The translations under genes were made by a program, and so were the position numbers. Below are positions 3 through 23,006 of a stretch of 28,089 bases of DNA, in pieces. The notes beneath the pieces are model-generated. The model saw nothing but the letters and a program-made list of their open reading frames with translations. It was not told the origin of the DNA and did no database searches. How positions within the stretch are numbered: the first letter of the stretch is position 1; each line of letters begins with the position of its first letter. Origin of the DNA: a virus (lineage: Duplodnaviria; Caudoviricetes); the IMG/VR virus record IMGVR_UViG_3300020461_000816, positions 1 through 28,089 of that record, one strand, 5' to 3'.

Positions 3-3000
3 AAATCTTTAGGCGGAGGAGAAGACGAAGGAAGTAGTTTTGCTAAGGGACTGGTCAGGGGCATAGGAAATGTATTGACCGGCCCGGGCATGATTGCCTT
101 TACAGTTATATTCACAAAGCTTTTGGCTAATGTTTTTAAGTTCGCAGGATCATCACTTAAAGATGTTATGGGGATAGTTTCCGAAAAGGAAAAAGTTAGA
201 AAAATCGAAGAATCTATCGTTAAAATATTAGGGGAGAATAAAGATCTTACTCAAGCTCTTAATAATCTTTCTGATGACCGAGTGGCTCAAGAGAAGTTTG
301 TCCTTGGCATGATTGAAAGACAAACAAATGCTTTATTAGAGCAGAAAAAACTAGCCGAAAGACTCGCTAGACCGCTTGTAAGGCAAGGAGTTAATGAAGA
401 TTTGTCTTTTACTAGTGATAGCTTAGTTGATCTTGATGGAGATGGAATCCCAGATACTTTTAACGCTTCTGGGGGAGTAGTTCCTCGAGAAAGAAAAAAG
501 GAAAGAGCTGGAGCAAGAAGAGGAGGATATACTCCTGGCGCCGTTGCGGATATGAATGTTCCTGGTATTGGAAGGGTCGTATACAATAAAGCGGAAACCA
601 TTAAGCAGTTTCCTGGAATGGCGCAACCTGCTATTATGCCCCCACAGAATAGTCCTGCTGGACAGCATTATAAAAATGCGTTTAGTGACAAGCATGGATT
701 TAATCCTTATGCTGGAAGTGGTTTTGTTCCTAATTTTGCAAGATGGGGAAAAGCTGACTACCCTGGCAGAAACACTAAAAAATATAGTGAAGCAAAAGGC
801 AATTGGTACATGGATAATCCTGCCTCAGGAAACATTAGCGTAAGGGGGACACCATTTAATGATTTACCAAATTACGTAATTAACCAAATCAAGAAAACTG
901 GCGGTGCGATTGGAGGCGGAAACATAGTTTTTGAAACCCCTGTTTCAAATTTAAATAAATCTACTTTTTTTGGAATAGGTGACCACTTATCTGCACTGGG
1001 GATAAGTACCATACGGACGGAATTACCTTTTGATTTCATAAATTATGCTGATGAGTATTTAGGAAAGAGCGGTCAACTGAAGAGTTCATATCGGACTAGA
1101 CTAAGTAAAGGCTCAAGCGCAAGTAAGGGAAAAATGGGTGAAGAGCTGTTTATGACCTCGGAAGAGGGTGGGGGCTATAAGTCAACAGCTGCTCATGACC
1201 AAGGAGTTGTAGACGCCGTACAAGAGGGTAAGATTCCTATTGAGGTTAAAGCAGGATCTATATCTTTGCAAAACTTAGCAGAAAAAAGCATAAGAAGATA
1301 TTCAAACCAGGCATTTAGAGACAACATTAGACAGCTTGCAAATGCACATATAGGTTCGACCTCAAGAAACAACCTTATACCAGGACTAGAAACAAATGGA
1401 GAAATTGCAGAATCATTACTTAATGCAGTTGATCAATTTGAGGAGCAAACAATAGTAAACAATTTATCATTACTTGCTAAAATGGGAGAGTACAGCTTCA
1501 CTGGAATGTCCAATGAAGAAACCAAATCTCTTCTTATTAATGATCCAAAACGTAAGATATTAAAACATGGAATAGGTGACAGAGAACTTCAAACACTTAA
1601 AAAATTTGGATTGAGTGGTGGATTTGTTCCTAATTTTATAGGTTTGACCCCGGCAGTGAAAAGCATAGCTGCAGAATTTAACCCAAAGAATGTTTCGAAT
1701 AAAACGCATCTCAGTTATATAGCCTTAGCTAAAAATGTAAGACTATCAGCAATGGGAGGTGGTACTAAATCACTCTCAACAATCGCCGCTGAGATGGGCA
1801 TATCAGAGTCAACGATTTCTAACTCCAAGAAACCGTCCACTACGTCAGGAAAAGCAGCTAAAGAAGCGCTTGGAAAAGGCTATAGTGCTTATGTAAGCGA
1901 TTTAAATGAAATTAAGTCGAATAAAAAATACCATATTCAAAGAGGACTTGATTTTGAGAATCACTTACTAGAGATATTTGGAATGACCAGGGCGACTGAT
2001 AAAACCGCCCCAATGGATTATATTAACAACGAGTTTGAGGGAAAAGATAAAGACCTCAAAAAGAGAATTGAAATGATGGAGTCCACTGGTCATGGCGATG
2101 CATATGCTGGCCCAGCAGGGCATGCAGTTGATCATTTCATAGCCAAAGCAGTCCGTCAACAAGACCCCGATATAAAAACTTTTTTAACAGGTCGTAAAAG
2201 ATCTAAAAGAATCTTAAATACAAAAAATTATAGAGATATTATAGGTACAACTGGAGGTAAAACAGATGATGTAATCAAAGGAGTAGCTTCAATATCCGAT
2301 ATTGCAGAGCATTCAAAAAACTGGTTTCGAAGAAAAATTGTAGGTGCAGGTTATCCACTTAAAAAAACTGACAAGGTCGTGGATTTTATAAAAGCAAATC
2401 CAAAACTAGATAATAAAGAAATAACATATAAGTATACAAAAGATTTTGTTGACATAAACGAAGTAGTAAATCAGATAAGCAAGCTAGATCCAGGTAATAC
2501 TAAATCTCAAGGCCTAATTCCTAATTTTGCATCAACAACTTTATATAGAGGGACTAGCCCTAGATATGACAAGATTATGGATGATATCCCTAATCCTCCT
2601 CAATTCTTGTTTGACAAAATAATGGCGGCTAATACAAAATCTGAATTTATAGAAGCCGTTAAACACCTAGGAATATCTCACTCTATGGGGGCATACAGCG
2701 GAAGCTATAATGAGAGAGCAAGGACTGCTACTTTAGAGGAGCTGAGGGGTTATGAAAAACTACCGGAAAATGAAATTCTTCACGGAGGATATGTATACCC
2801 CAGGCCTATAAAGGGAGGATGGGGCAAGCAAGAAGGGGTTGACATTACTCCTAAGCACCAGCCTTCTGGATTTGTTAGCAGAACTGTAGACAAAGATGTA
2901 GCTATGAGTTTTGCAAAAGCCTTGACTCCTGGATATGAATATGACCCAAATGAAATGGGCAGAGTTGAAGAAAGATCTGTTTCGAATACAAGAATATTCG

Positions 3001-6000
3001 ACCAGGAAAAACTTGAAAAATATGTAGATAGATTTGGGTTAGAAAATGTAAAAAGAAGTTTTAAAGAAGGAATGCGCAAAGGAACCCTAAAAGACATTTA
3101 TTTAAATCTTCACAAATTCCGACCAAAAGTTCAAAGCACAGATCCTTTAGATATGTTTAGTCCTAATGCTGGAGAGTCAGAAAGAAGCATAGGAATGACT
3201 GATGGATCACTTACTAGTGACGAAAAAGAAATAACTCAGATTTGGTCAAAGCGCTCTCCTTATTTCGGGAGCAATCAAGGGTTGGTTCCTAATTTTTCTT
3301 ACAGGATGGCTAAAGGCATCGAATGGCAAAAGCATGCTAGTTACGGAAAAGGTTTCGACGAAGGTACTTACGGAAAAAGTTTTATTGGAGAAACAATAAA
3401 AAATCAAAAGAAATTCTTGTTAGCAAAAGGCCATCCTTTCTTTTCTAATTATATGGGTAACCAGAAAAAGAAGTTGTGGGCTTTAAAGCAAGCTACATTT
3501 TCTGGAAAAGATATCTATTGGCCTGGGGCTCATTTGGCTGACCTAGAAGCATGGGGGCATCTTCCAAATGAAGAAGCTGCAAAAAGTGCCGCCCAACGCG
3601 TAGCAGATGAACAAAAGAAAAATAACCAATACAGGGATGAGATGCTCAATGGGAAATGGGAGGATGTCTCTGATGTAATGAGGTTTGTCTCCAAAACACA
3701 AGAAGTTCGATACACAGGAGCGCTCAAAGATAAAATAGTTGATAAGCTAGGAAAAGAATATAGCCACATATCTTATAATGCTAAGCGCGTAGAAGATTAT
3801 GCCAAAGAGAATAAAATTTTCAAAGAACAGTCTAAATTTGGACTGCAAACAAAAAATCCATACCCAGACACAATTAGAGCTATTAATCAGATAGCTGATT
3901 TGCCCGCACAAAAAATAAAAGACCTAGATGTTATCAGGCCAAGGGGAATGAGCGAAATGGAGATGGAGCAGGTAAGGGCTCAATCAATAGCAAATCAGAT
4001 AAAATGGGATGTGCGAGAATCTGCCTCCGGAAAGAAAGAATATGGAATTAGGGCTAATGGAGCAGGAGCATTTCCAAAATTCATGGAATTTTTAGCCAAA
4101 AAAGGAATTCCCAAAAGATCAATAGATAATATACAAAAGAAACTTGACGCTAAGAATGCGGCAATGAATGAACACTATAACCAAGCACATAAGAACTATG
4201 GGGCTAGTGGAAGGGCTAAGCAGAGCGCTGGTCTTGCTTATGATGCGATGTCAAAAGATCAAAACCGAATTACAACGGATGGTCTTTATATTAAAAATCT
4301 TGCAAGTTTAATAAAAGAGTATAATGAAAGTTATGCCAACCAAGGTCTTGTTCCCAATTTTGCAGATATATCAAAAATAAGAGAATTAGCAATTAGAGGA
4401 AGGGGAGGCGAAAAAACCAACGCCCAAAGAATGCTCAAGAAATTCTCTATACAATCTAAGGGAATGTTTGACGATATGATAATAGACGATTTCCTAAGGA
4501 ATCCTAATATGTCGTACAAAGGGCCTTGGGGAGATACTGTAACTGATTATTTATTAAGCAAAGGGTACGATAGAGATCAAATTTTGAAAGCCGCCAAAAA
4601 ACCGGGATCTTATACTAGGGCGGCCATTGGTCTTATACCTAATTTCTCTAACCCATTAAGGGATGCAATAAGTAGAGAAAAATCCGCAGGAATACCTGAG
4701 AACAGAATAAGAGTTTCTCAAGACGACAGGCTCAGGGGTCCGAAAAATCCAATGGGGCTTGGTGTTATTAACACTAGGGATGAACCGCTAGGAATTGGGC
4801 AAGGAATTAGACGCGCAAAAGAAATGGGCATAAACCCGAAAAGCCACGGAGCATCACAAGGATTGGTTCCTAATTTTGCAGATCCTGTAAATCTTGATGA
4901 AATAAGAAAAAGTCTCGTTTCTAATTTAAAGAAAATAGAGAAATCTTTTGGTAATGTTAACATGGTCACAAGGATCTTTAAAGGCCTTGATACTGATGAT
5001 GTAGACTCGATTGAAAAAGCGATAGATAAAACAAGCGATTTAATAGGTCACCTACAAGAAGGAATTAGTAATTTAGAAACAAAGGCTCAATCTGGCCCAC
5101 TTACTCAAGCGGAAGAAAAACAACTTAGTGGCAATAAGGAACGTTTAGAGAAAATAAAAGAAACCAAGAAAAACCTTGAAGGAGCAAAAGCTGTCGCTTC
5201 AGTAAAAACAACAGATGATTTTGACAAGCATTTAGAAAAATTAATAAAAGCAATAAACGAACGCCTTAAAGACATAGAACAATCAGGAAGTGCCGACGCC
5301 GAGCAAGAACATAAAAAAATACTTGAAGAGAGGCATAACTTAGAGAGAGAGGACATCAAATTGTCTGAACAAGGCATGAAAGCCAAGGAAGGCGATATAT
5401 CCAAATTGTTCTTTATGTCTAGTATGATCCAGATGGTTAATGGACAATTTCAGGAACTAGCTACTAGCTCAAGTTCTGTCATTGCTGGATTTGGGCGGCT
5501 TGGTGAAGGAATAGGTAATGTTGTTCAAGCTCAAATTGCAGCAAAAGAAGTAAGTAGTCAGCTCAGCTCAGCTATGGGGGTTGATAGTGATCAATCATTT
5601 AGTTTAGGTGATTTAAATCCGTTTGACTCAAGCTCTCGTGACGCGAAAAATAAAGCTTTTAAAGCATCAGAGATGGAAAAAGCCAGGAAGGGCAAAGCTC
5701 CCAAGGGCATGCTGGGAGGCCTTCTGAAATCTGCTGGTGGGCTCGCAAGAGGATTTACTAGATTTGTACCAATTCTTGGTCAAGCTTATACTATATTTCA
5801 AGGAGTTAATTCTGCCCTTAAATTTCTTAGTGGGACTGCTCTTGGTGCAGCCATGGGGCTTGAAGAGGGTGAAGGACTTATGGACCTGCTTGCATCAAGG
5901 GCTAGTAAAGCAGCAAAAAATATTGAAAGACTTGGAAAAATGTCTGAGGTTGCATCTGCAGCAATGGAGTCAATAGACAAGAGTACTGAAGCTCAGAAAA

Positions 6001-9000
6001 AAGTTACCGACTTAGAAGTTCTAGGAAGCAAAAGAACATTAAAGCAGGATACCGAGTTGATGAGAGCTAGGCTTGAGTTAATGAAAGCAAAAACAAAGGA
6101 AGTTGAATCAATCGCAAACCTTACAAACAAGCAAAAAGCAGGAGCTAGTGGAGTAAAGTTTTTTACGGAAGTGCTAGAGGATGCCGCTAGTTCAGGAAAA
6201 AGTATTAGAGATGCATTAGAGGCAGCTTCTACAGAAATGTCGGCATTTACCGCCATGGCTCAAATAAGAAAAAATTTCTCTGAACAAACCAATAATCTTG
6301 GTTTATCGGATGGCCAAGAGGAATTTTCATCAATGGCTAAAATAGCCGGAGCGGGATTAGCTGAGTTTATAGTGCCATTAATCAACGAGCCAGGAAAAAG
6401 TGAAAGAGAAAATGCAGATATACTGAATAAAGTAATGCTGGAGGTTCAAAGGATTGCTAATATGAGCGCTTCTGATATAGACGACTCAATTGGTATTGAT
6501 AGTATTGATTTTAGTAAAACGGGAATTAGTCGTGAGTTTGTTGCCGAAGCTATAGCAAAGGAACTACAGCGGTTTCAAGAAGATACGACAGAAGAAGATG
6601 AATATGGCCTGGATGCCAACAAGGCCTTTAAAGCAGGCATGCAAATCCTCGCTGAACAATTAAAAGCCAGAAGTGATCTTACTGATGACCTTCTTGATAT
6701 TGCTGAAAGTACTGGAGAAAGCAAGAAAGTACACGCTAGAATTTTAAGTATGGCATTGAGCGAGTCTAAGTTCGCTGCAGAAAGACAAAAATTTCAAGCC
6801 TCTATGCTTAAGCTTGATAGGTCTATAATGAGTAATACTGTCTCATCATTAAAAGATAATGAATTAATTTCTAGAGCAGATGCTATTAGGGCCGCCAATG
6901 CAATCAAGCTTGCAGACATTCAAACAGATCTTGAGCTTAAAAGAGCAGAAGCGACAAGAGAATATTCTAATACGTTAGTTAAACTTAATGCAGAATCCTT
7001 AAAGGTAGAAAACTTAATTTCACAAGAAGATAAAGCAAGCCTGGAAGCAGCAACTAATAGATTGAAAAAGGGATTGGAGAAATCAGCTGATGCTCTTGAG
7101 GGCGGGAAAATGCTTGACAGTTTAACAGAAGGATTATCTGAAGATGCCGTATCCCGTCTGAAAAGCATGATAAGCACGGATGATATCGCAGAGGCTCAAG
7201 AAAAATTAAATAGTCTAGCTGCTAATGTTAAAGACGGTGTAGAGACACAAGAACATCTCAATAACATTTTAAGAGATATGGTTGAAAAAGGAAAGCACAA
7301 TGTTGCTTTATTAATGAAATTGGGACTTTCTATATCTGAAACCATACCAGTAAATGAAGACTCTACTATTAAGTATAGAGAAGCTATTACCAAGCTCGCG
7401 CAAAACCTTGACTCTTTAGATAAAAATAATAAAACAGAAGAAAGAAAATTAAAAATTGCCACTCAAGAAGAGCTGGTAAAAGCAAAAACTCTAGCTGGAG
7501 CAAAAGAATTAGCGCGTAGAATAGAAAAAGAAGTAGACCTGAGAAAAACAATAGAGAAAAATACTCTTGGTGAAATAGCAACTCTTAAGGTTTTGAACGA
7601 CGCGAATAAAGAAAGAGCAAAAATTGCAAAAAAATCACTTGGTTATGAGGCTTTAATTTTTGAAAGATTAAGAAGGCAGGTTCAGGATCAATTATCTTCA
7701 GAACAAGATACCTCTGCTACCCTTGATCAACAAGTAATGCTCATGAGGCTAAGAAGACCTGGTGCTGTAGTCAGAAATCCAGGAATCAGGGAAGCCGTAA
7801 ATAAACAAACCGAATTAGACGCTTTAAAAGTCAAGGCTGAGTTAACAAATTTACAAAAATCAAGGCTAGAAGCTCAAGACAGAAATTCTTTTATAGCTAT
7901 ATGGAAACAAAGAAATTTTATTGCGAACGAAACATTCTTAACCGAAAAAGCTAACCAAGAGAATGAAATACTTAATAACGATGCAAATCTGAAGCTTCTT
8001 GATAACAAAAAAAATAGGAATGATGTTGCGGCAAGAACTTTAATATTAGAAGTTCAAGGAATTGAAAAAGAATCAATGCTCCTTGATAGCAAAGTAGAAT
8101 TATTAAAAAATGCTAATTACAGGGCTTATATCTCACAGTCTCAGGTTAACTCCGAACTTAAGCAATTAAAGTACGACAAAGAACTCGAAGACGCCAAGTT
8201 TGAGTATGCCTTGCATAGTGGAAAGCTCGCTGAGACATCAGGCTTAACAGCCGAACAAGAAACTCTTGCGTTAGAGCGAGAAGCTATGTCGCTCAAATTA
8301 AAAGAAGATAAGCTTAAAAATGAAAAAGAATTAATAAGCAGGCAAACCAGGGCTCAAAATCTTCTTGACGTACAAAATAAACTTATAGAAATGAGGAATG
8401 CTCAAATTTCTGCCAGCGTCGACCAGGGGCACTTAAGTGCAATGGTTGATGCTGATATGCAAATCGAAAGAGCAGGTCAGAGAGGTGGGCTTAGGAGGTC
8501 AGCAACAAGGGGAATTATGTCAGGAAGACCTGAAGACATCCTCGCATTTACTGAGGGATTAAAGGAGTATAATGACACTGTTGGAGCAGGCACAAAAGCT
8601 ATTGATCAACTACGAATAAGAATGGCGGAAATGTCCGTATCTGCATCTAACCTCGGTTCTGATTTAGTCGACATAGGAATCGATGGTGCTAGGTCTGGCA
8701 TGGTTGAATTATTTAAATCAATAGGTAGCGGGGCAAAAAGTGCAAGCGAAGCCTGGGAAGACTTTAGTTTAGGGGTTGCTGAAAGCCTTCTTGACCGAAT
8801 CATGCAAAACAATGTCGACAAAATTATTAATGATTTAACTTACGCATTTACCGGGATCGATCCAGTTGAAGAAGCTAATAGATTTTTAGCTCAAAATAGT
8901 GATGCGGTTACTTTGAATACAGCTGCTATTGAGAAACTAATAGCAACTTATGCTGACGGAATAAGATCTGATACAGCACCTCCAGTGGGTGACAGGCAAG

Positions 9001-12000
9001 CAATATTAGCTAGAATAGAACGACTGATAGCAGCTATTGAGGCTAAGCATGCAGCCACTTATAGCCCTAAACCTAAAACTGGAATCGGCAACTACCACCT
9101 CGGTTTCCAGAAACTCGTGCAAACCCCAGCTGACATTATTAAATCCGCAAGGCCAAGAATGGAGCAATCTGCAAATGATCTTGTTGATGCTGTCACTCGG
9201 TCCCTGGCAAGTGTCACTAGCAAAGTTGAGGAAGTAAACGAACAGGCACAAAAAGCATTAGCAGTTAAACAAAAGCAAGAACAAGCAAAGTTGATAGATC
9301 AACAGTTTAAGGGGGCGGGCGCTGAAATGACCAAACGCCTCGAAGCTGGCCACTCTGGTATAGAAGGTGTTAAGAGTGAATTATGGGCTTCATATGGAAG
9401 TAAAAGTAAGGGTAAGAGAAGGCTTGATGAAATTGATGAAGAGCTTGCCCAACTTAGTCGCCTTAAAGGAAAAGAATATGAAAGACACTGGGCTGTTCCT
9501 ACTCCATATGAGACAGAGAATGAATCTAACATTCGCCAGTGGAAAAAAAACCTTAGAGCATGGAGAGATCAACAAAACAAAAAGAAATTCGACAGCAACA
9601 AATGGTTTGATATATATAACGCTCCAGGACCTTTGGGGAATCGTGACACACTAAAATACAGAGATGGCAGAAGGATTCATGGAGAATTTTTGCAAGGGGC
9701 TTCACAACAAGAAATTGACAGACTCTCTAAAGCTATTGCTAAGGAAAAAGCAAATAAAGTCGGGCTCGGGGTGGGTCTTTCTTCAATTCAAAGTGATTTA
9801 TCAAAGACAGGTATTTCTTCCGAAGAGCGTCAGAGCTTAAGGGACCAGCAGAAAAAAACAAAAGAAAAAATCCAAGCCATAAATTCAAATATAGAAAATC
9901 TAGAAGAAGAGAAAGCATGGTACGAGAAAGTATATAATACAGGAACTTTCTGGATTGATTATGACAAAAATAATGAGCAAAAACAGGATGAACTAAGAAA
10001 AGAACAGGAAAGAATAAACAATGAACTAAACGATGCACAAAAAGCGATAAACTCTGCAAAAGTTGAACTATTAAATCAATATAGAAATAGAGCTGAAGTA
10101 TTAACCGCTATGGTTGAAGGTTTTAATTCAGGAGAAGCTCCATTAACGAAAGGAGAATATGAGAGCCTATATACCGAAGTTCAGAATTTTAATAACACTT
10201 ATGGCATGCAACTAAGAAATGAGGATCAAAATTATGGGAGGGTTAATATGACAGAGCCAAATCGTGTTAATAATAGCCGTTTTCGTACTAAAGAGGACTT
10301 TGCAGGGCCTCCTTTAGCCAATCAATTACCTCCCCCATTTGACACATCTAAATTGCCCCCAGTACCGCCCCCTCCGGCACTAGTAGGCCAAAAAGAAGTA
10401 GGACTTTCGTTAGCGATGGACCCCAATGTGCAAGGATTAAAACTCGCCTTAGAAGCTAACACAAGTGCTGTTAGGGAAAAAAATGTAAAAATCTACCAAG
10501 ATTCTCTAGATGATTTAGGCCAAATTTTAGGAAAAAAATTCTGGGGCGGAAGAATTCAAAAATTTGCAGAAGGCGGCTTCGTGAATGGGCCAGCAGGAAA
10601 AGATCAAGTTCCTGCCATGTTGACCGCCGGTGAATACGTTGTGCCCAAGGATGAAGTCCAAAAATTTAATAAAGGAACAGGCAGGCGAGGCGCTGGAACT
10701 ACTGGTAATTGGTGGGAAGAGGATTGGTTTGGCTGGAATCGGCAAAACACAGACAACCGTATGGTCGCAGGGCTTCAAGCGGTAACCTCAGCGGTAACCA
10801 TGCAGCATGCATCAAGACTGATGAGTGACGCTCTCAATAAAAGGCAAGACAAGCCTCCGACATTTGATATGAAAAAGCTTAATCAGCTTAATTTACAATC
10901 AGATGTGTCAATGAAAAGGGGTGATCCCAGGCTAAGCTCGAAAGCTTTGGCGAATGATCCTGTGATGGAAGAATATCGATCATATTTAATGGACAAAGCT
11001 GCTTATAGAGTACAAAAGCAAAACGAAAAAATCAAAAAAAGAAAATCACGTATTGGTACGGCTGTGCAGACTGCCGCTAGTTTTGCCATGAAAGAGGGTG
11101 TAAATAAAATTGTTCGCCCAATGGTCTCTAAAGCCAGAGAAGCCGTTGTTGACTGGGCTGGCGGAAAATGGGGGGATTATTCAGAGACATATCAACATTT
11201 AAGAAAAAGTGGATTTGATGTAAAATATAGCGATGTCAGGGAATCTATCGAAAGCGGAAAAGATTTAACATTTGACAGAGTTGTCAATGGAAGAAATAGA
11301 ACATATACATTTAGTCCAAAAAAGACACCTTTTCATGATCAAAAAGGAACACTTGAAATATCTAATATAGAGGGTGGCGGAATAGGAGGAAATCAAATAT
11401 ATGCTGATGGTTTTGAATGGCAAAAATGGGGGGATCCATTTACAAATGCCGCAAGGCTAAGTGAGCCCACTAGGCCTGGAAGCGCAGAAGAGAGAAAAAT
11501 ATTAAAAAACTTAGAAGAAACATACGAAAGGAAAAATAGAGGCGGACTAATACCCTCAATGCTTACTGCAGGAGAGGGATTTATACCAGCGTCAATAGCT
11601 AAAAGAATTGGTTATGGAAACTTAGACACAATGAACAAAACCGGATCTCTTCCGATTGTTCAAGGCCCAGGAGGAATTGACAAGGTTGGGCCAGTTGGTT
11701 TAAGTGAAGGAGATTTTATTATCCGAAAAAGTTCTACGGACAAACTCATGAGGGAAAACCCGAACATGATGAGATTTGCACTTCAGAACCCAGACGGATT
11801 CAGGAGAGGGGAAACAGGATATTACGAGGGAGGAATAGTTGGCACTGGAGATTTTTCTTCAACATCAATGCCTACCTCAAGTGCTTCGTCGACTGGTCAA
11901 CCAGTTAATAGAATTCAGCCATTGATAGAAGCTGCTGAAGCACAACAAAAAGAAAAGGCAACACATTCTCAAAATAACGAGGTTACCAATAATATTAATG

Positions 12001-12158
12001 TTAGCGTAACCATTGATAGCTCAGGGAATGAAACGGTAGAGGCATCAAGCCCTAAGGAATCATACGAACAAGAGCAAGAACTGGCCATGAAGATTAAATC
12101 TAAGGTTCTAGAAGTTATAAGAGAGGAGAAAAGACTAGGCGGAGAGCTCGATAGATGA
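3..12158 (+). CDS. Giant phage tail tape measure protein carrying an internal array of effector-like cassettes (5' partial)
   Basis: The frame is open from base 3 (KSLGGGEDEGSSFAKGLVRGIGNVLTGPG...), so the TTG start at 75 is probably an artefact and the gene begins upstream. It has long Ala/Glu/Lys/Leu-rich helical stretches and Gly/Ala-rich amphipathic segments (about 50-150 and 5700-5870). The C-terminus is TMP-like (FAEGGFVNGPAGKDQVPAMLTAGEYVV; NNINVSVTID...VLEVIREEKRLGGEL). It lies directly upstream of lambda-like M/L/K/I/J tip genes. Confidence 0.9.
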   Translation, partial: KSLGGGEDEGSSFAKGLVRGIGNVLTGPGMIAFTVIFTKLLANVFKFAGSSLKDVMGIVSEKEKVRKIEESIVKILGENKDLTQALNNLSDDRVAQEKFVLGMIERQTNALLEQKKLAERLARPLVRQGVNEDLSFTSDSLVDLDGDGIPDTFNASGGVVPRERKKERAGARRGGYTPGAVADMNVPGIGRVVYNKAETIKQFPGMAQPAIMPPQNSPAGQHYKNAFSDKHGFNPYAGSGFVPNFARWGKADYPGRNTKKYSEAKGNWYMDNPASGNISVRGTPFNDLPNYVINQIKKTGGAIGGGNIVFETPVSNLNKSTFFGIGDHLSALGISTIRTELPFDFINYADEYLGKSGQLKSSYRTRLSKGSSASKGKMGEELFMTSEEGGGYKSTAAHDQGVVDAVQEGKIPIEVKAGSISLQNLAEKSIRRYSNQAFRDNIRQLANAHIGSTSRNNLIPGLETNGEIAESLLNAVDQFEEQTIVNNLSLLAKMGEYSFTGMSNEETKSLLINDPKRKILKHGIGDRELQTLKKFGLSGGFVPNFIGLTPAVKSIAAEFNPKNVSNKTHLSYIALAKNVRLSAMGGGTKSLSTIAAEMGISESTISNSKKPSTTSGKAAKEALGKGYSAYVSDLNEIKSNKKYHIQRGLDFENHLLEIFGMTRATDKTAPMDYINNEFEGKDKDLKKRIEMMESTGHGDAYAGPAGHAVDHFIAKAVRQQDPDIKTFLTGRKRSKRILNTKNYRDIIGTTGGKTDDVIKGVASISDIAEHSKNWFRRKIVGAGYPLKKTDKVVDFIKANPKLDNKEITYKYTKDFVDINEVVNQISKLDPGNTKSQGLIPNFASTTLYRGTSPRYDKIMDDIPNPPQFLFDKIMAANTKSEFIEAVKHLGISHSMGAYSGSYNERARTATLEELRGYEKLPENEILHGGYVYPRPIKGGWGKQEGVDITPKHQPSGFVSRTVDKDVAMSFAKALTPGYEYDPNEMGRVEERSVSNTRIFDQEKLEKYVDRFGLENVKRSFKEGMRKGTLKDIYLNLHKFRPKVQSTDPLDMFSPNAGESERSIGMTDGSLTSDEKEITQIWSKRSPYFGSNQGLVPNFSYRMAKGIEWQKHASYGKGFDEGTYGKSFIGETIKNQKKFLLAKGHPFFSNYMGNQKKKLWALKQATFSGKDIYWPGAHLADLEAWGHLPNEEAAKSAAQRVADEQKKNNQYRDEMLNGKWEDVSDVMRFVSKTQEVRYTGALKDKIVDKLGKEYSHISYNAKRVEDYAKENKIFKEQSKFGLQTKNPYPDTIRAINQIADLPAQKIKDLDVIRPRGMSEMEMEQVRAQSIANQIKWDVRESASGKKEYGIRANGAGAFPKFMEFLAKKGIPKRSIDNIQKKLDAKNAAMNEHYNQAHKNYGASGRAKQSAGLAYDAMSKDQNRITTDGLYIKNLASLIKEYNESYANQGLVPNFADISKIRELAIRGRGGEKTNAQRMLKKFSIQSKGMFDDMIIDDFLRNPNMSYKGPWGDTVTDYLLSKGYDRDQILKAAKKPGSYTRAAIGLIPNFSNPLRDAISREKSAGIPENRIRVSQDDRLRGPKNPMGLGVINTRDEPLGIGQGIRRAKEMGINPKSHGASQGLVPNFADPVNLDEIRKSLVSNLKKIEKSFGNVNMVTRIFKGLDTDDVDSIEKAIDKTSDLIGHLQEGISNLETKAQSGPLTQAEEKQLSGNKERLEKIKETKKNLEGAKAVASVKTTDDFDKHLEKLIKAINERLKDIEQSGSADAEQEHKKILEERHNLEREDIKLSEQGMKAKEGDISKLFFMSSMIQMVNGQFQELATSSSSVIAGFGRLGEGIGNVVQAQIAAKEVSSQLSSAMGVDSDQSFSLGDLNPFDSSSRDAKNKAFKASEMEKARKGKAPKGMLGGLLKSAGGLARGFTRFVPILGQAYTIFQGVNSALKFLSGTALGAAMGLEEGEGLMDLLASRASKAAKNIERLGKMSEVASAAMESIDKSTEAQKKVTDLEVLGSKRTLKQDTELMRARLELMKAKTKEVESIANLTNKQKAGASGVKFFTEVLEDAASSGKSIRDALEAASTEMSAFTAMAQIRKNFSEQTNNLGLSDGQEEFSSMAKIAGAGLAEFIVPLINEPGKSERENADILNKVMLEVQRIANMSASDIDDSIGIDSIDFSKTGISREFVAEAIAKELQRFQEDTTEEDEYGLDANKAFKAGMQILAEQLKARSDLTDDLLDIAESTGESKKVHARILSMALSESKFAAERQKFQASMLKLDRSIMSNTVSSLKDNELISRADAIRAANAIKLADIQTDLELKRAEATREYSNTLVKLNAESLKVENLISQEDKASLEAATNRLKKGLEKSADALEGGKMLDSLTEGLSEDAVSRLKSMISTDDIAEAQEKLNSLAANVKDGVETQEHLNNILRDMVEKGKHNVALLMKLGLSISETIPVNEDSTIKYREAITKLAQNLDSLDKNNKTEERKLKIATQEELVKAKTLAGAKELARRIEKEVDLRKTIEKNTLGEIATLKVLNDANKERAKIAKKSLGYEALIFERLRRQVQDQLSSEQDTSATLDQQVMLMRLRRPGAVVRNPGIREAVNKQTELDALKVKAELTNLQKSRLEAQDRNSFIAIWKQRNFIANETFLTEKANQENEILNNDANLKLLDNKKNRNDVAARTLILEVQGIEKESMLLDSKVELLKNANYRAYISQSQVNSELKQLKYDKELEDAKFEYALHSGKLAETSGLTAEQETLALEREAMSLKLKEDKLKNEKELISRQTRAQNLLDVQNKLIEMRNAQISASVDQGHLSAMVDADMQIERAGQRGGLRRSATRGIMSGRPEDILAFTEGLKEYNDTVGAGTKAIDQLRIRMAEMSVSASNLGSDLVDIGIDGARSGMVELFKSIGSGAKSASEAWEDFSLGVAESLLDRIMQNNVDKIINDLTYAFTGIDPVEEANRFLAQNSDAVTLNTAAIEKLIATYADGIRSDTAPPVGDRQAILARIERLIAAIEAKHAATYSPKPKTGIGNYHLGFQKLVQTPADIIKSARPRMEQSANDLVDAVTRSLASVTSKVEEVNEQAQKALAVKQKQEQAKLIDQQFKGAGAEMTKRLEAGHSGIEGVKSELWASYGSKSKGKRRLDEIDEELAQLSRLKGKEYERHWAVPTPYETENESNIRQWKKNLRAWRDQQNKKKFDSNKWFDIYNAPGPLGNRDTLKYRDGRRIHGEFLQGASQQEIDRLSKAIAKEKANKVGLGVGLSSIQSDLSKTGISSEERQSLRDQQKKTKEKIQAINSNIENLEEEKAWYEKVYNTGTFWIDYDKNNEQKQDELRKEQERINNELNDAQKAINSAKVELLNQYRNRAEVLTAMVEGFNSGEAPLTKGEYESLYTEVQNFNNTYGMQLRNEDQNYGRVNMTEPNRVNNSRFRTKEDFAGPPLANQLPPPFDTSKLPPVPPPPALVGQKEVGLSLAMDPNVQGLKLALEANTSAVREKNVKIYQDSLDDLGQILGKKFWGGRIQKFAEGGFVNGPAGKDQVPAMLTAGEYVVPKDEVQKFNKGTGRRGAGTTGNWWEEDWFGWNRQNTDNRMVAGLQAVTSAVTMQHASRLMSDALNKRQDKPPTFDMKKLNQLNLQSDVSMKRGDPRLSSKALANDPVMEEYRSYLMDKAAYRVQKQNEKIKKRKSRIGTAVQTAASFAMKEGVNKIVRPMVSKAREAVVDWAGGKWGDYSETYQHLRKSGFDVKYSDVRESIESGKDLTFDRVVNGRNRTYTFSPKKTPFHDQKGTLEISNIEGGGIGGNQIYADGFEWQKWGDPFTNAARLSEPTRPGSAEERKILKNLEETYERKNRGGLIPSMLTAGEGFIPASIAKRIGYGNLDTMNKTGSLPIVQGPGGIDKVGPVGLSEGDFIIRKSSTDKLMRENPNMMRFALQNPDGFRRGETGYYEGGIVGTGDFSSTSMPTSSASSTGQPVNRIQPLIEAAEAQQKEKATHSQNNEVTNNINVSVTIDSSGNETVEASSPKESYEQEQELAMKIKSKVLEVIREEKRLGGELDR
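1125..1256 (+). other. PD-(D/E)xK restriction-endonuclease-like core in TMP cassette 1
   Basis: KGKMGEELF helix (1125), VVD (Asp codon at 1212) and IPIEVKAG (E-x-K at 1242-1250) occur in the canonical order and spacing of this fold. Confidence 0.65.
2532..3278 (+). other. ADP-ribosyltransferase-like domain (R-S-E clade) in TMP cassette 3
   Basis: TLYRG (LYRG at 2541), GFVSRT...VAMSFA (2868) and DEKEI (3219) match the three ART catalytic motifs in order and fill the cassette from end to end. Confidence 0.7.
10563..11843 (+). repeat. Three copies of the TMP C-terminal GG...L[TS]xG[ED] module
   Basis: FAEGGFVNGPAGKDQVPAMLTAGEYVVP (10563-10646), GGLIPSMLTAGEGFIP (11541-11588) and VQGPGGIDKVGPVGLSEGDFIIR (11658-11726), followed by YYEGGIVG (11820-11843). 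Confidence 0.8.
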
Positions 12159-13216
12159 GGCAATCAATACTTGGCTATGAACAGCAATTCTACATCAACG
12201 GAACTCAGATTTCTGGGGTGCAAAGTGTTGATGGATCATATTCTATAAAAGAAACTCCTATTAATGTTCTCGGCTGGGGGCATGTAAATAAAAATTTTCA
12301 GGGAGGAGCTCAATATATTGAATCTGACCAAGGTGGGCTCATATTAGATGAAAACGGATTCAGGTTGTTACAAGAATCTACTTTGTGCAGTAGAAAAAAG
12401 AGCGATCAGTTCCCTGAGAGCTTAGCTGTATTAAGCGCGCCCTTAGAAGGATCGTTTTCTATTAACTCAATGTTAGTTAGTGAAGATTTTTTCTTAAATT
12501 ATACTGGAGATAATCCCTTTACTGGTAGTATTCATCATGGTAATAGTTATTTTGGTTTTAGTAGCGGGTATATTACTAGCCATAATGTTTCTTGTTCTGT
12601 AGGTCAATTACCTGTGACCTCTACATCTATTGCTGTTTTTGGAGACATAGGAGGATCTCCAGATTTAGTCGAGAACGAAGATAACTCTCTCTTAATGCAG
12701 GAAGATTCGTTCAAAGTCGTGCAAGAAAAAAGCGATAATCCGAGTGATACTTATAATGCTAAAGGCAATAATCCATTTCCTGAAATCAGGGTGCCTAATC
12801 AGCAATCAATGTCTGTAGAAATTGGTGGGGATCTTGAGATAGGGGGAGGATTGGCCGGAGAAGATGGAATAACTAAAGATAGGGTAACAAGCTTCAATCA
12901 TTCTATCAATATACCAATAGAACCAATATATGTTGTCGGGTCATCTTCTGCTGTTCAGGTGGATGTTATATGGCCAGTTACAATGCAGACTGATATTACG
13001 ATAGAGGTTGACGAATACAGTTATAGAAGTATGAGAAAATATTTACGATCTCCAATACTCGATAATATAGCTATCAGGATAGATGATTGCTTTGGAAACA
13101 ACATTCAGGATTATTTAGTAAAAGACGCTAGGTTTGCAAGTGAAACTATGTCTGCCTCTACAGATGGAAGACTGACTGCAAATTTGTCTTATATTTCTTA
13201 TTATAATAAAAGGTGA
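12155..13216 (+). CDS. Phage tail structural protein, probable tail-tube-fold tip/baseplate subunit
   Basis: 353-aa ORF with an ATGA overlap on the TMP stop. It is beta-strand rich and has a tail-tube-like start (FYINGTQISGVQSVDGSYSIKETPINVLG) that is echoed in the second half (RVTSFNHSINIPIEPIYVVG). Function is inferred from position and pattern. Confidence 0.6.
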   Translation: MRQSILGYEQQFYINGTQISGVQSVDGSYSIKETPINVLGWGHVNKNFQGGAQYIESDQGGLILDENGFRLLQESTLCSRKKSDQFPESLAVLSAPLEGSFSINSMLVSEDFFLNYTGDNPFTGSIHHGNSYFGFSSGYITSHNVSCSVGQLPVTSTSIAVFGDIGGSPDLVENEDNSLLMQEDSFKVVQEKSDNPSDTYNAKGNNPFPEIRVPNQQSMSVEIGGDLEIGGGLAGEDGITKDRVTSFNHSINIPIEPIYVVGSSSAVQVDVIWPVTMQTDITIEVDEYSYRSMRKYLRSPILDNIAIRIDDCFGNNIQDYLVKDARFASETMSASTDGRLTANLSYISYYNKR

Positions 13217-14418
13217 GAAGTAAAAAACCATTCTATAGATACGAAGATGTTCCCCTGCTTTTAGCGGCGGAGGGGCAGGAGCCTGTCATGGTTTTTGCTC
13301 AATCAGCTAGTATCTCCGCCAACCAGCCCCTAGCGGCGAAAAAATTCATGGAGGATTATAATATATCTTTTGCGCTGCAAGACAAAGATATACATTTTAA
13401 AACAGCTCATGAATCGGGTTTTCTATTGGGTCCTCCAGAGGGTCCTGGATCAAAGGTTCCTGAATCCATAGAGGTTATTAGAAGCGGCCAAAAAATAGCA
13501 TATCCAAATGGTCAAGCGTTGTATCTAGCAGAAGATTTAATGCCAGGAGATTATCATATTAAAGTAAGATCTACTGGAGAAACAATACTTGATTTAAAAG
13601 AAGATATACCTTACGGAGAAGCAGAAGTTGTTAGAAATTATGCTGCAGAAGGACCAATCAGGGGAAGGTTGAGCATATCTTATTACATGAATACTGGAAA
13701 CCTTCACACTTTTGCAGATCTTACTGGCCTTATGGATCCAACTATATATCCACAAGTCAACGAATCAAAAATTACAGGTGCATTAGGAGATTATCATTTT
13801 CATGACATATATTTAAGCGAAATGAGCTTTGACGCACAACCATTTCAGCCGATACAAGCCAATGTTGAACTTGATGTTTATGGAAAAATGGAATATGTAG
13901 AAGGTTTTGCAGACTCCATAACAAGCACATATCATTGTTTTAAAGAAGAACAGATAACATTACCCCATGCAGTAAATACAAAAATTTTAGGGGCAGACGG
14001 AATTGGGATCAACTACCCTCTTAATTTTAACTATAGCATTACGGCTAACAGAGTTCCTGAAATTCCTGTGCCTATTAGTGGTTACTCTGATACAGAAGGC
14101 GAGCTCCCAACTAGGGTAGCAAAAAATGAAGTAGACATTACAGTACAATTACAAGGAGAAAAACTTGATCCTTTTCTTAAGTTAACTGGACAAAGAGCTG
14201 ATGTTACAATAAAACTTTCCGATCTAGGCTTTGAAGAAAGCTATAGTGATAATAATTTTGGAGAATTAAAAGAATTTAGATTGCTGGGTAATTTGATTTT
14301 GCCTGATGAAGTTCCTCAGGAAATGAAGCAATATGGTGTAGTTGATCAAGATGCTCTTAGCGTATCCGAGGGTGGTTTCCTCAGGGGGAGAGCAACAGTT
14401 AAACAGTCTTACAGGTAA
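13213..14418 (+). CDS. Phage tail structural protein, probable tail-tube-fold tip/baseplate subunit
   Basis: 401-aa ORF with a GTG start overlapping the previous stop (GTGA). Alternating beta pattern (YLSEMSFDAQPFQPIQANVELDVYG; NFNYSITANRVPEIPV) resembles the preceding gene. It lies between the TMP and the gpM-like gene. Confidence 0.55.
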   Translation: MRSKKPFYRYEDVPLLLAAEGQEPVMVFAQSASISANQPLAAKKFMEDYNISFALQDKDIHFKTAHESGFLLGPPEGPGSKVPESIEVIRSGQKIAYPNGQALYLAEDLMPGDYHIKVRSTGETILDLKEDIPYGEAEVVRNYAAEGPIRGRLSISYYMNTGNLHTFADLTGLMDPTIYPQVNESKITGALGDYHFHDIYLSEMSFDAQPFQPIQANVELDVYGKMEYVEGFADSITSTYHCFKEEQITLPHAVNTKILGADGIGINYPLNFNYSITANRVPEIPVPISGYSDTEGELPTRVAKNEVDITVQLQGEKLDPFLKLTGQRADVTIKLSDLGFEESYSDNNFGELKEFRLLGNLILPDEVPQEMKQYGVVDQDALSVSEGGFLRGRATVKQSYR

Positions 14419-21224: not shown

Positions 21225-22277
21225 ATGAGAAATACAGAAACATATAATAGAGAAATACTCCAGATTGAGCCTTCGACAATTGTATGTCTTTATAATATAA
21301 ACCTTAGAGATAGAGGTAGGTATTTATTTCATGCAGGAGAAAATGGATACCATAAGGAAATTATTTTTAATGGCCAAAAATATGATTACTTTCCTATTAA
21401 AGCTGAAGGTTTTAATATGAGTGGTGATGGTAAGCTTCCAAGACCGAAAATGACATTTCCAAATCACCAAGGAAACGTTTCTCTAAGATTGGGGGTATTT
21501 AAGGATTTTATTAATTACAAGGTTACAAGAATAAAAACATTCGTGAAATACCTTGATGCAGAAAACTTCCCTAATGAAATAAACCCCCATGCGGAACCTG
21601 ACCCAGACACCTCCTTTTCTGAGGATATTTTCTTTGTAAACCAGAAAACAAAAGAAAATGATAATGTTGTAGAGTTTGAATTAGTTTCTCTTCTTGAGCT
21701 TCAAAACGCCAGTGTGCCAGCAAGAACAATGTATTCTAATTATTGCGGATGGCAATACAGGAGTGATATTGGATGCGGTTATAGAGGGAGACCGATATCA
21801 GATCAAAAAAATAAAAGATTTGTGCCGAGTGGTTATACTGGGCAAATGGTAGGCGAAGAAACATATTTCTCTGGTGATTTTCTTCAAGAAAATGATTTCG
21901 CTTTAAACTCTTCTCACTTATATCCAAAATGGACTCGTAGCGGAAAATACAATAAGGGAGATGTGGTAAGAGTGGATATGGTGGATAATGATCTAGAAAT
22001 AGACAGAAAACTTTATCCTGTTAATATATATGTTTGTTTGGAAGATAATGTAAGATCAAATCCTATAGGTGATACTGAACGCTGGGTGCTTGATGATTGC
22101 GATAAAACATTATGTGGTTGCAGGCTTAGGTTTTCAGAATTAGCTACTGGAGCTGGAGGAGGAAAGAGGATGAATGCTCAAAATATAGATGCGTTCACAT
22201 CTATTGAATGGACTGAAAGTGGGAATGGTTTACCTTACGGAGGTTTTCCTGGAATAGATCCTTATGAATACAAATAA
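21225..22277 (+). CDS. Minor tail tip protein, lambda gpL-like (predicted Fe-S cluster binding)
   Basis: IIFNGQKYDYFPIKAEGF...GKLPRPKMTF, KVTRIKTFVKYLDAENF, VEFELVSLLE, CGWQYRSDIGCGY, CDKTLCGCRLRF and C-terminal LPYGGFPG are hallmark gpL motifs. The four conserved Cys are present. Confidence 0.93.
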   Translation: MRNTETYNREILQIEPSTIVCLYNINLRDRGRYLFHAGENGYHKEIIFNGQKYDYFPIKAEGFNMSGDGKLPRPKMTFPNHQGNVSLRLGVFKDFINYKVTRIKTFVKYLDAENFPNEINPHAEPDPDTSFSEDIFFVNQKTKENDNVVEFELVSLLELQNASVPARTMYSNYCGWQYRSDIGCGYRGRPISDQKNKRFVPSGYTGQMVGEETYFSGDFLQENDFALNSSHLYPKWTRSGKYNKGDVVRVDMVDNDLEIDRKLYPVNIYVCLEDNVRSNPIGDTERWVLDDCDKTLCGCRLRFSELATGAGGGKRMNAQNIDAFTSIEWTESGNGLPYGGFPGIDPYEYK

Positions 22278-22989
22278 TTTTCATAATGATATTGTATCTC
22301 ACGCCGAGAAAAACCCAGAAGAAGAGGTTTGCGGTTTTGTAATACTTAACTCTGATCTCACTGTATCTTCTGAGCCAGCTGTAAATGAAAACAGAGAAAA
22401 AGAAGATTGTTTTGAGATTTCTGCTAGTAAATTTATAGATTATAAATTAAATAAAAAAATACTGGGCATTTATCATTCGCATCCCAGAAGTGACGAAAAC
22501 CCTTCTGAGCGAGATAAAAAAGTATCTGAAGAAATGGGTATTCCATATTTAATATATAGCTTGCAGACTAAAAAGTTCTTTCTTTATTACCCCGAGTCTT
22601 ATTCTCCAGATAATTTGCTTGGCAGGCCATATGTTAAGGGCTTCTATGAGTGTACGTGCCTCTTTAAAGACTACTTTGAAGTCGAGCTAGGGATCAATAT
22701 CACAAGGTGGCACAACAACTACTGGTTGACGGAATCAGATAAAGAGGCTAATATAATATTAGAAGAAGTACTTGATAAAAATTTAAATAAAATTAATTTA
22801 ACGGATATTAAAAAACATGATGTTATCGTTTTTCAAATAAAAGACAATAAAAGAAAGCATGTTGGTATGTATTTGGGGGATGATTATTTTATTCACCAAT
22901 GTGGCGGAGGACTTTCTCAGAAACAATTTCTTGACGGTAGGTGGCAAAAGAAAATAAAAGGAGCATACAGGCACCCGTCTTTGGTGTAA
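22264..22989 (+). CDS. Tail assembly protein, lambda gpK-like (JAB/MPN + NlpC/P60)
   Basis: EEVCG...IYHSHP...PSERD is the JAMM motif. LLGRPYVKGFYECTCL...HVGMYLGDDYFIHQ is the NlpC/P60 Cys-His-His pattern. It follows gpL. Confidence 0.93.
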   Translation: MNTNNFHNDIVSHAEKNPEEEVCGFVILNSDLTVSSEPAVNENREKEDCFEISASKFIDYKLNKKILGIYHSHPRSDENPSERDKKVSEEMGIPYLIYSLQTKKFFLYYPESYSPDNLLGRPYVKGFYECTCLFKDYFEVELGINITRWHNNYWLTESDKEANIILEEVLDKNLNKINLTDIKKHDVIVFQIKDNKRKHVGMYLGDDYFIHQCGGGLSQKQFLDGRWQKKIKGAYRHPSLV

Positions 22990-22995
22990 ATATAC

Positions 22996-23006
22996 AAGGA
23001 AAAAGG
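22996..23006 (+). promoter_or_regulatory. Purine-rich ribosome binding site AAGGAAAAAGG before the gpI-gpJ start
   Basis: AAGGA at 22996-23000 lies 6 nt upstream of ATG 23007, within the 17-nt gap after gpK. Confidence 0.5.

Follow-up and report, generated by a model that had tools for sequence, protein, structure and literature searches.

The virus sequence examined here, positions 1 to 28,089 of IMG/VR record IMGVR_UViG_3300020461_000816 (Duplodnaviria; Caudoviricetes), is a stretch of 28,089 nucleotides (nt), hereafter ‘the window’, that opens within a very long open reading frame (ORF) encoding a tape measure protein (TMP). Upstream of its ruler part, this TMP carries an array in which seven copies of a short peptide, G[FL][VI]PNF[ASI], fence off five variable cassettes that lie between two fixed units of ∼70–85 amino acids (aa) (Table 1). 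The first 408 aa of the TMP lie outside the window, and with them the N-terminal PF10145 domain that marks full-length, near-identical forms as TP901-type (P0002, E = 2.7e-25; P0001, precomputed); the PHROGs TMP families match the C-terminal part of the window protein weakly. In keeping with the TP901 type, the TMP gene is the longest tail gene and lies between tail tube/chaperone genes and tail-tip genes.

Table 1. Features of the window, with nucleotide positions.
Feature	Position	Strand	Remarks
TMP, 5'-truncated	3..12158	+	last 4,051 of 4,459 aa (full form P0001)
Hydrophobic, possibly membrane-spanning segment upstream of array	72..128	+	Kyte-Doolittle peak 1.66 at P0001 residue 432
Degenerate opening joint ASGGVVP and fixed lead unit, ∼83 aa	459..719	+	lead unit nt 471–719, in 113/120 homologues
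Motif 1, GFVPNFA	720..740	+	
Cassette 1, PD-(D/E)xK-type nuclease-like	741..1619	+	E nt 1140, D nt 1212, E nt 1242, K nt 1248
Motif 2, GFVPNFI	1620..1640	+	left crossover of cassette-2 swap (joint nt 1636)
Cassette 2, helix-turn-helix (HTH)-like N-terminus and nuclease-like core	1641..2510	+	altered active site G-x3-E, D, D-A-x5-GH, K
Motif 3, GLIPNFA	2511..2531	+	right crossover (joint resumes nt 2508)
Cassette 3, ADP-ribosyltransferase (ART)-like	2532..3278	+	R nt 2547, S nt 2865/2877, E nt 3222, E nt 3228
Motif 4, GLVPNFS	3279..3299	+	
Cassette 4, basic, no assigned family	3300..4343	+	family in 14/120
Motif 5, GLVPNFA	4344..4364	+	
Cassette 5, small basic module, no invariant residues	4365..4628	+	loose family in 64/120
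Motif 6, GLIPNFS	4629..4649	+	
Fixed closing unit NPxGLxVxNTxDEP, 70 aa	4650..4859	+	106/120 homologues; bracket rather than cargo
Motif 7, GLVPNFA, array end	4860..4880	+	
A/E/L/Q-rich ruler part	4881..9050	+	from composition; 62–100% identical per 100 aa in P0002/P0003
C-terminal FAxGG...GE joint	10560..10650	+	related to lambda gpH 724–777; resembles first half of delimiter
gpK-like tail assembly protein, JAB and NlpC/P60 peptidase domains	22264..22989	+	Pfam E 2.7e-11 and 1.7e-10

A recount bears out the seven peptides and the insert lengths (293, 290, 249, 348, 88 and 70 aa, from motif spacings of 300, 297, 256, 355, 95 and 77 aa) given in a preliminary description of this DNA. Composition predicts 5e-5 motifs rather than seven; the seven PNF tripeptides of the TMP, against 0.25 expected, all lie within motifs, and G[FL][VI]PNF occurs in no other frame of the window. 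The same description counted six unrelated cassettes, of which five do vary, but the 70-aa unit, which lacks Tyr, is kept in so many homologues (Table 1) that it is a bracket and not a variable sixth cassette. At the other end, the opening joint is degenerate in the window, with a full motif at the same place in many relatives. Homology between the lead and closing units was considered but is not supported, as an 81% profile match fell to 0.5% once the motif was removed; neither unit had a sequence match in the PDB. Cassettes 1–5 are indeed richer than the ruler in Gly, Tyr and aromatics (Phe, Trp and Tyr together 7.4–10.4% vs. 3.3–4.0%), but the enrichment also claimed for Lys did not hold consistently (5.2–12.7% vs. 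7.6–11.7%).

A homologue search with residues 100–260 as the query found 164 proteins, of which the best 120 were analyzed; because the query spans the lead unit and motif 1, motif 1 was selected for and the other motifs were not. Position scoring identified 808 motifs, 2–14 per protein, in 120/120 homologues (shuffled proteins gave 2 matches at score 11 and 0 at score 13), with a P, N, F/Y core that is near-invariant at up to 14 sites and a Gly that is lost at some junctions. Pattern scans located 41 viral loci, and then at least 120 viral loci (an estimated ∼180) and at least 121 metagenome loci (an estimated ∼250). BLAST groups the 667 segments of ≥30 aa in the 120 homologues into 105 clusters; with the loci added, 1,393 partly redundant segments fall into 186 clusters, including 110 singletons, among which some unsplit or over-long pieces are counted. 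Among the loci, the commonest array consists of the lead unit, one nuclease-like cassette and the closing unit, and 110 of the 120 homologues carry at least one nuclease-like cassette (grouped by consensus motifs), so that the array comprises a near-fixed core and optional slots. In an outgroup TMP (L063), RFxxG-type joints that lack PNF flank the same nuclease-like domain; L061 has neither.

Two complete relatives are 200 and 214 kb long, and DNA of the window occurs in marine metagenome runs of seven studies, with no RNA run among those listed. Searches for cultured relatives gave none for the array or the family capsid protein, and only 22–28% matches for the terminase and N-terminal domain. 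A host assignment from 22 genome-collection matches was rejected, because these span many phyla, with 17 DnaB matches in one bin, and look like mis-binned phage contigs.

Cassette content and exchange

The preliminary description reported enzyme motifs in several cassettes. The active-site residues concerned are conserved in relatives, but no window cassette reaches the Pfam cut-off; nor was there a convincing PHROG match (best E = 0.0016), and PDB profile searches with cassettes 1, 2 and 3 and a GNAT family returned only E > 0.2. Cassette 1, whose family is present in 82 of the 120 homologues, has the catalytic set of PD-(D/E)xK nucleases, with the E, D, E and K found in 100, 102, 102 and 102 of 102 sequences, respectively; its Atlas lead, Tox-REase-7, reaches only 0.82. 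The G, E, D, D, H and K of cassette 2 are kept in 54/54 sequences, and its best Pfam matches are HTH families (E 0.03–0.85), a fold that is significant in a related cassette (PF07022). In the alignment, cassette 3 contains the aromatic-R, S-x-S/T and (E/Q)-x-E motifs of R-S-E ARTs (R in 32/33 sequences, S in 33/33 and 32/33, E-x-E in 33/33); its Atlas leads, the NarE/Scabin/Lart1 clusters at 0.88–0.90, fall below the recognition threshold, and a single-sequence fold model was unusable (predicted local distance difference test, pLDDT, 40). The C-terminal third of cassette 4 also stands alone as a cassette (profile match to cluster c6, probability 98%), and cassette 5 is common to the window and L032 (81% nt identity over 4351–4599).

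SNase, GNAT, HIGH-NTase and P-loop modules occur additionally in the arrays of relatives, with motifs intact in the SNase, GNAT and P-loop ones; kinase-like and HAD-like cassettes were read from consensus motifs only, and just 7 of 255 scanned cassettes pass the Pfam cut-off. Catalytic-type residues are invariant at 20–40% overall identity, 93% of cassettes have a net basic charge, and purifying selection is evident in 56 of 59 cassette pairs (for cassette 3 vs. L195, the ratio of nonsynonymous to synonymous substitution rates, dN/dS, is 0.14), with values of 0.8 and 1.2 in two pairs of one nuclease-like family. An AlphaFold2 model of the minimal array in L071 (61 sequences, mean pLDDT 64, predicted template modelling score 0.45) places its four motifs in segments below 50 pLDDT between blocks at 70–90, with two low-confidence stretches inside the cassette as well; a Foldseek search with this model found nothing at E ≤ 0.001, with the bracket units barely covered by the wide search. 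In this array, predicted domain boundaries thus coincide with the motifs, which would sit in disordered linkers between folded blocks. The modelled blocks, conserved active-site residues and purifying selection support the view that the cassettes are conserved, globular, enzyme-like domains rather than stretches of ruler helix. Elsewhere, a motif-bearing long protein contains a NUDIX domain (P0138 1570–1697, E 2.5e-11), and array TMPs give a weak PGDYG match (P0074 1826–1866).

The full form and two relatives (P0001, P0002 and P0003) are 99–100% identical over their first 947 aa, but only 11–25% identical in cassette 2, which diverges right after PNF, with identity returning at the next motif. 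At the DNA level, a contig in run X8 skips nt 1637–2507 and has 898 other bases instead, and L195 shares with the window only nt 2509–3294 (the ART cassette and its fences, at 82%), embedded in a different array. Cassette families differ in 19 of 33 close pairs. A motif stands no more than 12 aa away from 55 of the 101 breakpoints in these pairs (vs. 15% of random positions), and no more than 8 aa away from 20 of 23 breakpoints in the 11 closest pairs that have any. This test is biased in favor of motifs, because matched blocks are lengthened by a conserved motif; the DNA joint of the X8 contig is independent of it. The content of nuclease-like slots is replaced at motifs even within one family (P0082/P0091), and 21 spacers of ≤36 aa include near-empty slots. 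The array is therefore swappable, as had been proposed, with cassettes gained, lost and replaced at the motifs, in the case of cassette 2 between relatives whose flanks are 99–100% identical. Because the two cassette families tested (cassettes 1 and 3) occur once per genome, in the TMP, in the two complete relatives (G003 and G004), exchange is likely to take place between phages.

Slots can be duplicated: P0090, P0012 and P0068 have single cassettes in tandem copies, among them repeated 34-aa HQDGS mini-units. A coupling of array length to ruler length is not supported: a raw rho of 0.76 (n = 112) fell to r = 0.17 after tree correction, with 55 vs. 42 same-sign contrasts.

The delimiting peptide and a possible delivery route

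Across 933 distinct motifs, codons are used much as in the background, apart from mild skews at V and P. Synonymous codons within the motif vary, which indicates selection on the peptide and hence a protein-level signal, and a DNA-level recombination site was rejected on the same grounds as the reason for the motif; the ∼20-nt stretch that encodes it can nonetheless be used as crossover homology. Capsid targeting was likewise rejected, as no copy occurs in 146 other ORFs of the 200-kb relative G003 or in other frames of the window. The motif is short, linear and near-invariant and is predicted to sit in flexible linkers at each domain boundary; a protease site is the best fit to this pattern, and is what we predict the motif to be. 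The first half of the motif is similar to the FAxGG joints toward the C-terminal end of the TMP (of 204 such sites, half lie above the 95th percentile for GG sites of the ruler), and a profile of the C-terminal joint matches lambda gpH 724–777 (independent E-value 7e-6, single-protein search), next to an estimated cut zone at ∼690–730 in a protein without PN[FY]. The lambda study gives both the gpH cut site and its protease as unknown (PMC12617516). Candidate proteases here would be the gpK-like JAB/NlpC protein and a putative prohead protease, named by position and without a Pfam match; self-cleavage of an Asn-lyase type at N|F would be a conceivable alternative.

It is established that TMPs fill the tail lumen with their N-terminus at the head, exit before the DNA and, in T5 and lambda, are cut during assembly; from this placement, we infer that the array would leave just ahead of the DNA, into the cytoplasm. 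Related phages would swap cassettes by recombination during co-infection, across the ∼20 nt of motif-coding microhomology. Within the lumen, the cassettes might lie unfolded or partly folded toward its head-proximal end, where tail chaperones would keep them inert; after ejection, the upstream hydrophobic segment may anchor the array on the cytoplasmic side, where a phage or host protease recognizing [IV]PN[FY] would free the enzymes before phage genes are expressed. Nuclease-like modules could then attack host DNA or RNA, and ART, GNAT and kinase-like modules could modify host proteins or nucleic acids. Since whole modules are exchanged at a repeated peptide, what the tail delivers before the DNA is likely a set of host-attacking enzymes that can change. 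The complete chain, from an exchangeable enzyme-like array carried in the tail, through ejection with the TMP and cutting at the peptide, to host-attacking enzymes freed before expression, we judge to have an even chance of being right. The fuller version, in which a widespread family of ∼200-kb aquatic siphophages uses its TMP as a programmable injected polyprotein, with a dedicated protease cutting at every GxxPNF, up to 12 or so enzymes (nucleases, ARTs, acetyltransferases and kinases) released into the host, and slots reloaded by recombination from well over a hundred cassette types, is offered more tentatively, as a possibility somewhat short of even.

The main rival to release by cleavage keeps delivery and drops the cut: the cassettes would stay tethered like beads on a string and act where the DNA channel opens into the cytoplasm, with the motif as a structural joint (in variants, a chaperone or tube contact, an inter-chain register or a folding spacer). 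The model of a pore-tethered polymerase in phage P23-45 offers an analogy, no protease has been tied to the motif, the 21 short spacers indicate that near-empty slots are tolerated, and the likeness of the motif's first half to the C-terminal FAxGG joint, at which kind of joint a second variable region also ends, would suit a structural role. The predicted disorder around the motif and the near-invariance of its P, N and F/Y across as many as 14 sites look more like a recognition site, however, and enzymes this different would be unlikely to find all their targets at the pore, so that we consider tethering unlikely, though deserving of real weight. An improbable alternative holds that the array is excised as the tail is assembled, with nothing injected; its products would be discarded or would act in the producer cell (in late host shut-off, exclusion of competing phages or DNA degradation). 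TMPs are known to be processed in assembly, which can take out internal segments, the arrays of sister TMPs vary in length by hundreds of residues without compensation in the ruler part, and folded domains of 250–350 aa would hardly fit a 3–4.5 nm lumen in 3–6 copies. Stand-alone late genes would be a simpler means to that end, yet the cassettes were found only inside the TMP in two complete genomes and in wide searches, and fusion to a low-copy virion protein would itself argue for delivery.

The prevalence of net basic charge, the HTH domains, the altered nuclease signature of cassette 2 and the lack of a family match for most cassettes would all suit largely non-catalytic, basic DNA-binding or decoy modules on borrowed enzyme folds, which might guide or protect the incoming genome end or act as sinks for host sensors; the invariance of catalytic-type residues in otherwise divergent sequences, together with the intact SNase, GNAT and P-loop motifs, makes this very improbable. 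Neutral accretion, with the motif as a DNA recombination hotspot and the inserts as tolerated length padding, would account for swaps that map to motif DNA, for the slight codon skews at V and P and for the two dN/dS values near 1, but it is largely refuted by synonymous variation in the motif, widespread purifying selection and invariant active-site residues, and we give it almost no credence.

Other variable regions and surrounding genes

A second hypervariable TMP region (window 9060–10550) is 13–33% identical to P0002/P0003 between flanks that are 93–100% identical; it has a Pro-rich stretch but no PNF fences, and terminates at a FWGGRIQKFAEGG joint. Three GG-type joints near the TMP C-terminus (FAEGG, NRGGLIP...GEGFIP and YEGG; window 10560–11850) surround aromatic-rich inserts, possibly a second cargo zone. 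In two relatives (L046, 8884–21644, and L056, 9929–30537), the TMP is broken into several frames, probably by assembly frameshifts; that of L056 would exceed 6,000 aa.

Downstream of the TMP, the window encodes lambda-like tail-tip proteins (gpM-like, gpL, gpK with JAB and NlpC/P60 domains, and gpI/J), and relatives show a conserved head-neck-tail order upstream of it, with gene names inferred from position. The two genes directly after the TMP (12155–14418) group with the family's putative tail tube protein (cluster g0), which suggests, by sequence, tube-like paralogues at the tail tip. The next encodes a 1,501-aa protein (14418–18923) with a gpM-like Phage_min_tail domain at 667–783 and a vWA-like DTTGSM motif found by eye; lambda gpM is far smaller. 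The ORF at 22941–28088, at least 1,716 aa long, is a fusion of gpI-like and gpJ-like parts; close to its end, it has a weak C-type lectin match. The motif-bearing TMPs of L010, L012, L033 and L060 are followed by an unannotated baseplate gene set (g16, g13, g15) and not by a lambda-like tip. G003 (L313–L321) encodes DNA polymerase III alpha, a ClpB-like ATPase, RecA, two UvdE, PhoH and two sigma-70-like proteins, as well as a C5 methylase and a cluster of several glycosyltransferases, which could shield phage DNA from the phage's own nucleases.

Relation to known systems

The array is real and widespread, and would work like a polyvalent protein, but is TMP-borne and motif-fenced. As described in the main text of Iyer et al. 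2017 (PMC5512222), polyvalent proteins combine several unrelated conflict enzymes in one late, virion-associated polypeptide, and are proposed to be injected and processed into units by an MPTase. The window TMP family likewise joins at least two disparate conflict domains in one polypeptide in a late-gene virion context, and one relative's cassette has a weak Pfam match to ART-PolyVal (E 2e-5, below cut-off). It differs in that the carrier is the TMP (the word ‘tape’ is absent from that main text) and in that one repeated peptide, together with two fixed bracket units, delimits the domains. Apart from the ART-PolyVal match, 11 whole TMPs and 255 cassettes gave no Pfam match to MPTase or the hallmark domains (SWI2/SNF2, ArdC-N, LPD), although the cassettes are too divergent for firm absence.

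Other carriers share single elements of this layout. Judging from the portions of the reports consulted, the 5,002-aa TMP gp96 of Thermus phage P23-45, with its virion RNA polymerase (10.1101/2022.12.01.518664), is also a giant TMP with an N-terminal enzyme, one that acts in the cytoplasm before phage gene expression; in contrast to the present family, it has one fixed enzyme, proposed to stay on the pore, and no delimiter or swappable array is described there. T5 pb2 (10.1101/2022.09.20.507954), TM4 gp17 (PMC1796659), lambda gpH (PMC12617516) and the DT57C protein (PMC10713586) are TMPs with enzyme domains (cell-wall hydrolases) and/or proteolytic processing, but the accounts describe single peptidoglycan-targeting enzymes and one known cut near the C-terminus, whereas here 1 to ∼12 slots near the N-terminus hold cytoplasm-type enzymes. 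Sle1 (PMC13277306) and Tme (PMC11126660) pair a TMP-derived carrier with an exchangeable functional domain in the tail tube, though, as reported, in actinobacterial contractile injection systems with one functional domain, and not as a multi-slot array in a phage's own ruler. MuF polymorphic toxins (PMC5576092; PMC5512222, PMC9503650) resemble the array in fusing a virion structural protein to variable toxin-type domains, but are described as a head protein with a single C-terminal toxin. The array is internal and multi-slot, rather than the single variable C-terminal toxin of the polymorphic type. Cognate immunity genes are typical of MuF polymorphic toxins; no second, orphan copy of the cassette 1 or 3 families was found in G003 or G004, in a search not aimed at immunity genes. 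Full-text literature searches, with most subscription papers and supplements outside their reach, found no motif-fenced swappable TMP array.

Siphophages were thought to carry few injected enzymes; ARTs are encoded by 3% of siphophages vs. 30% of myoviruses (PMC9503650). A multi-slot TMP would constitute a general delivery route through the non-contractile tail. The arrays provide a ready-cut library of candidate proteins for host takeover or anti-defence, in ∼180 sequence clusters that mostly lack a family, and the motif provides a repeated, mutable site for asking how and where TMPs are cut. The layout could, in addition, guide the engineering of protein delivery into bacteria.

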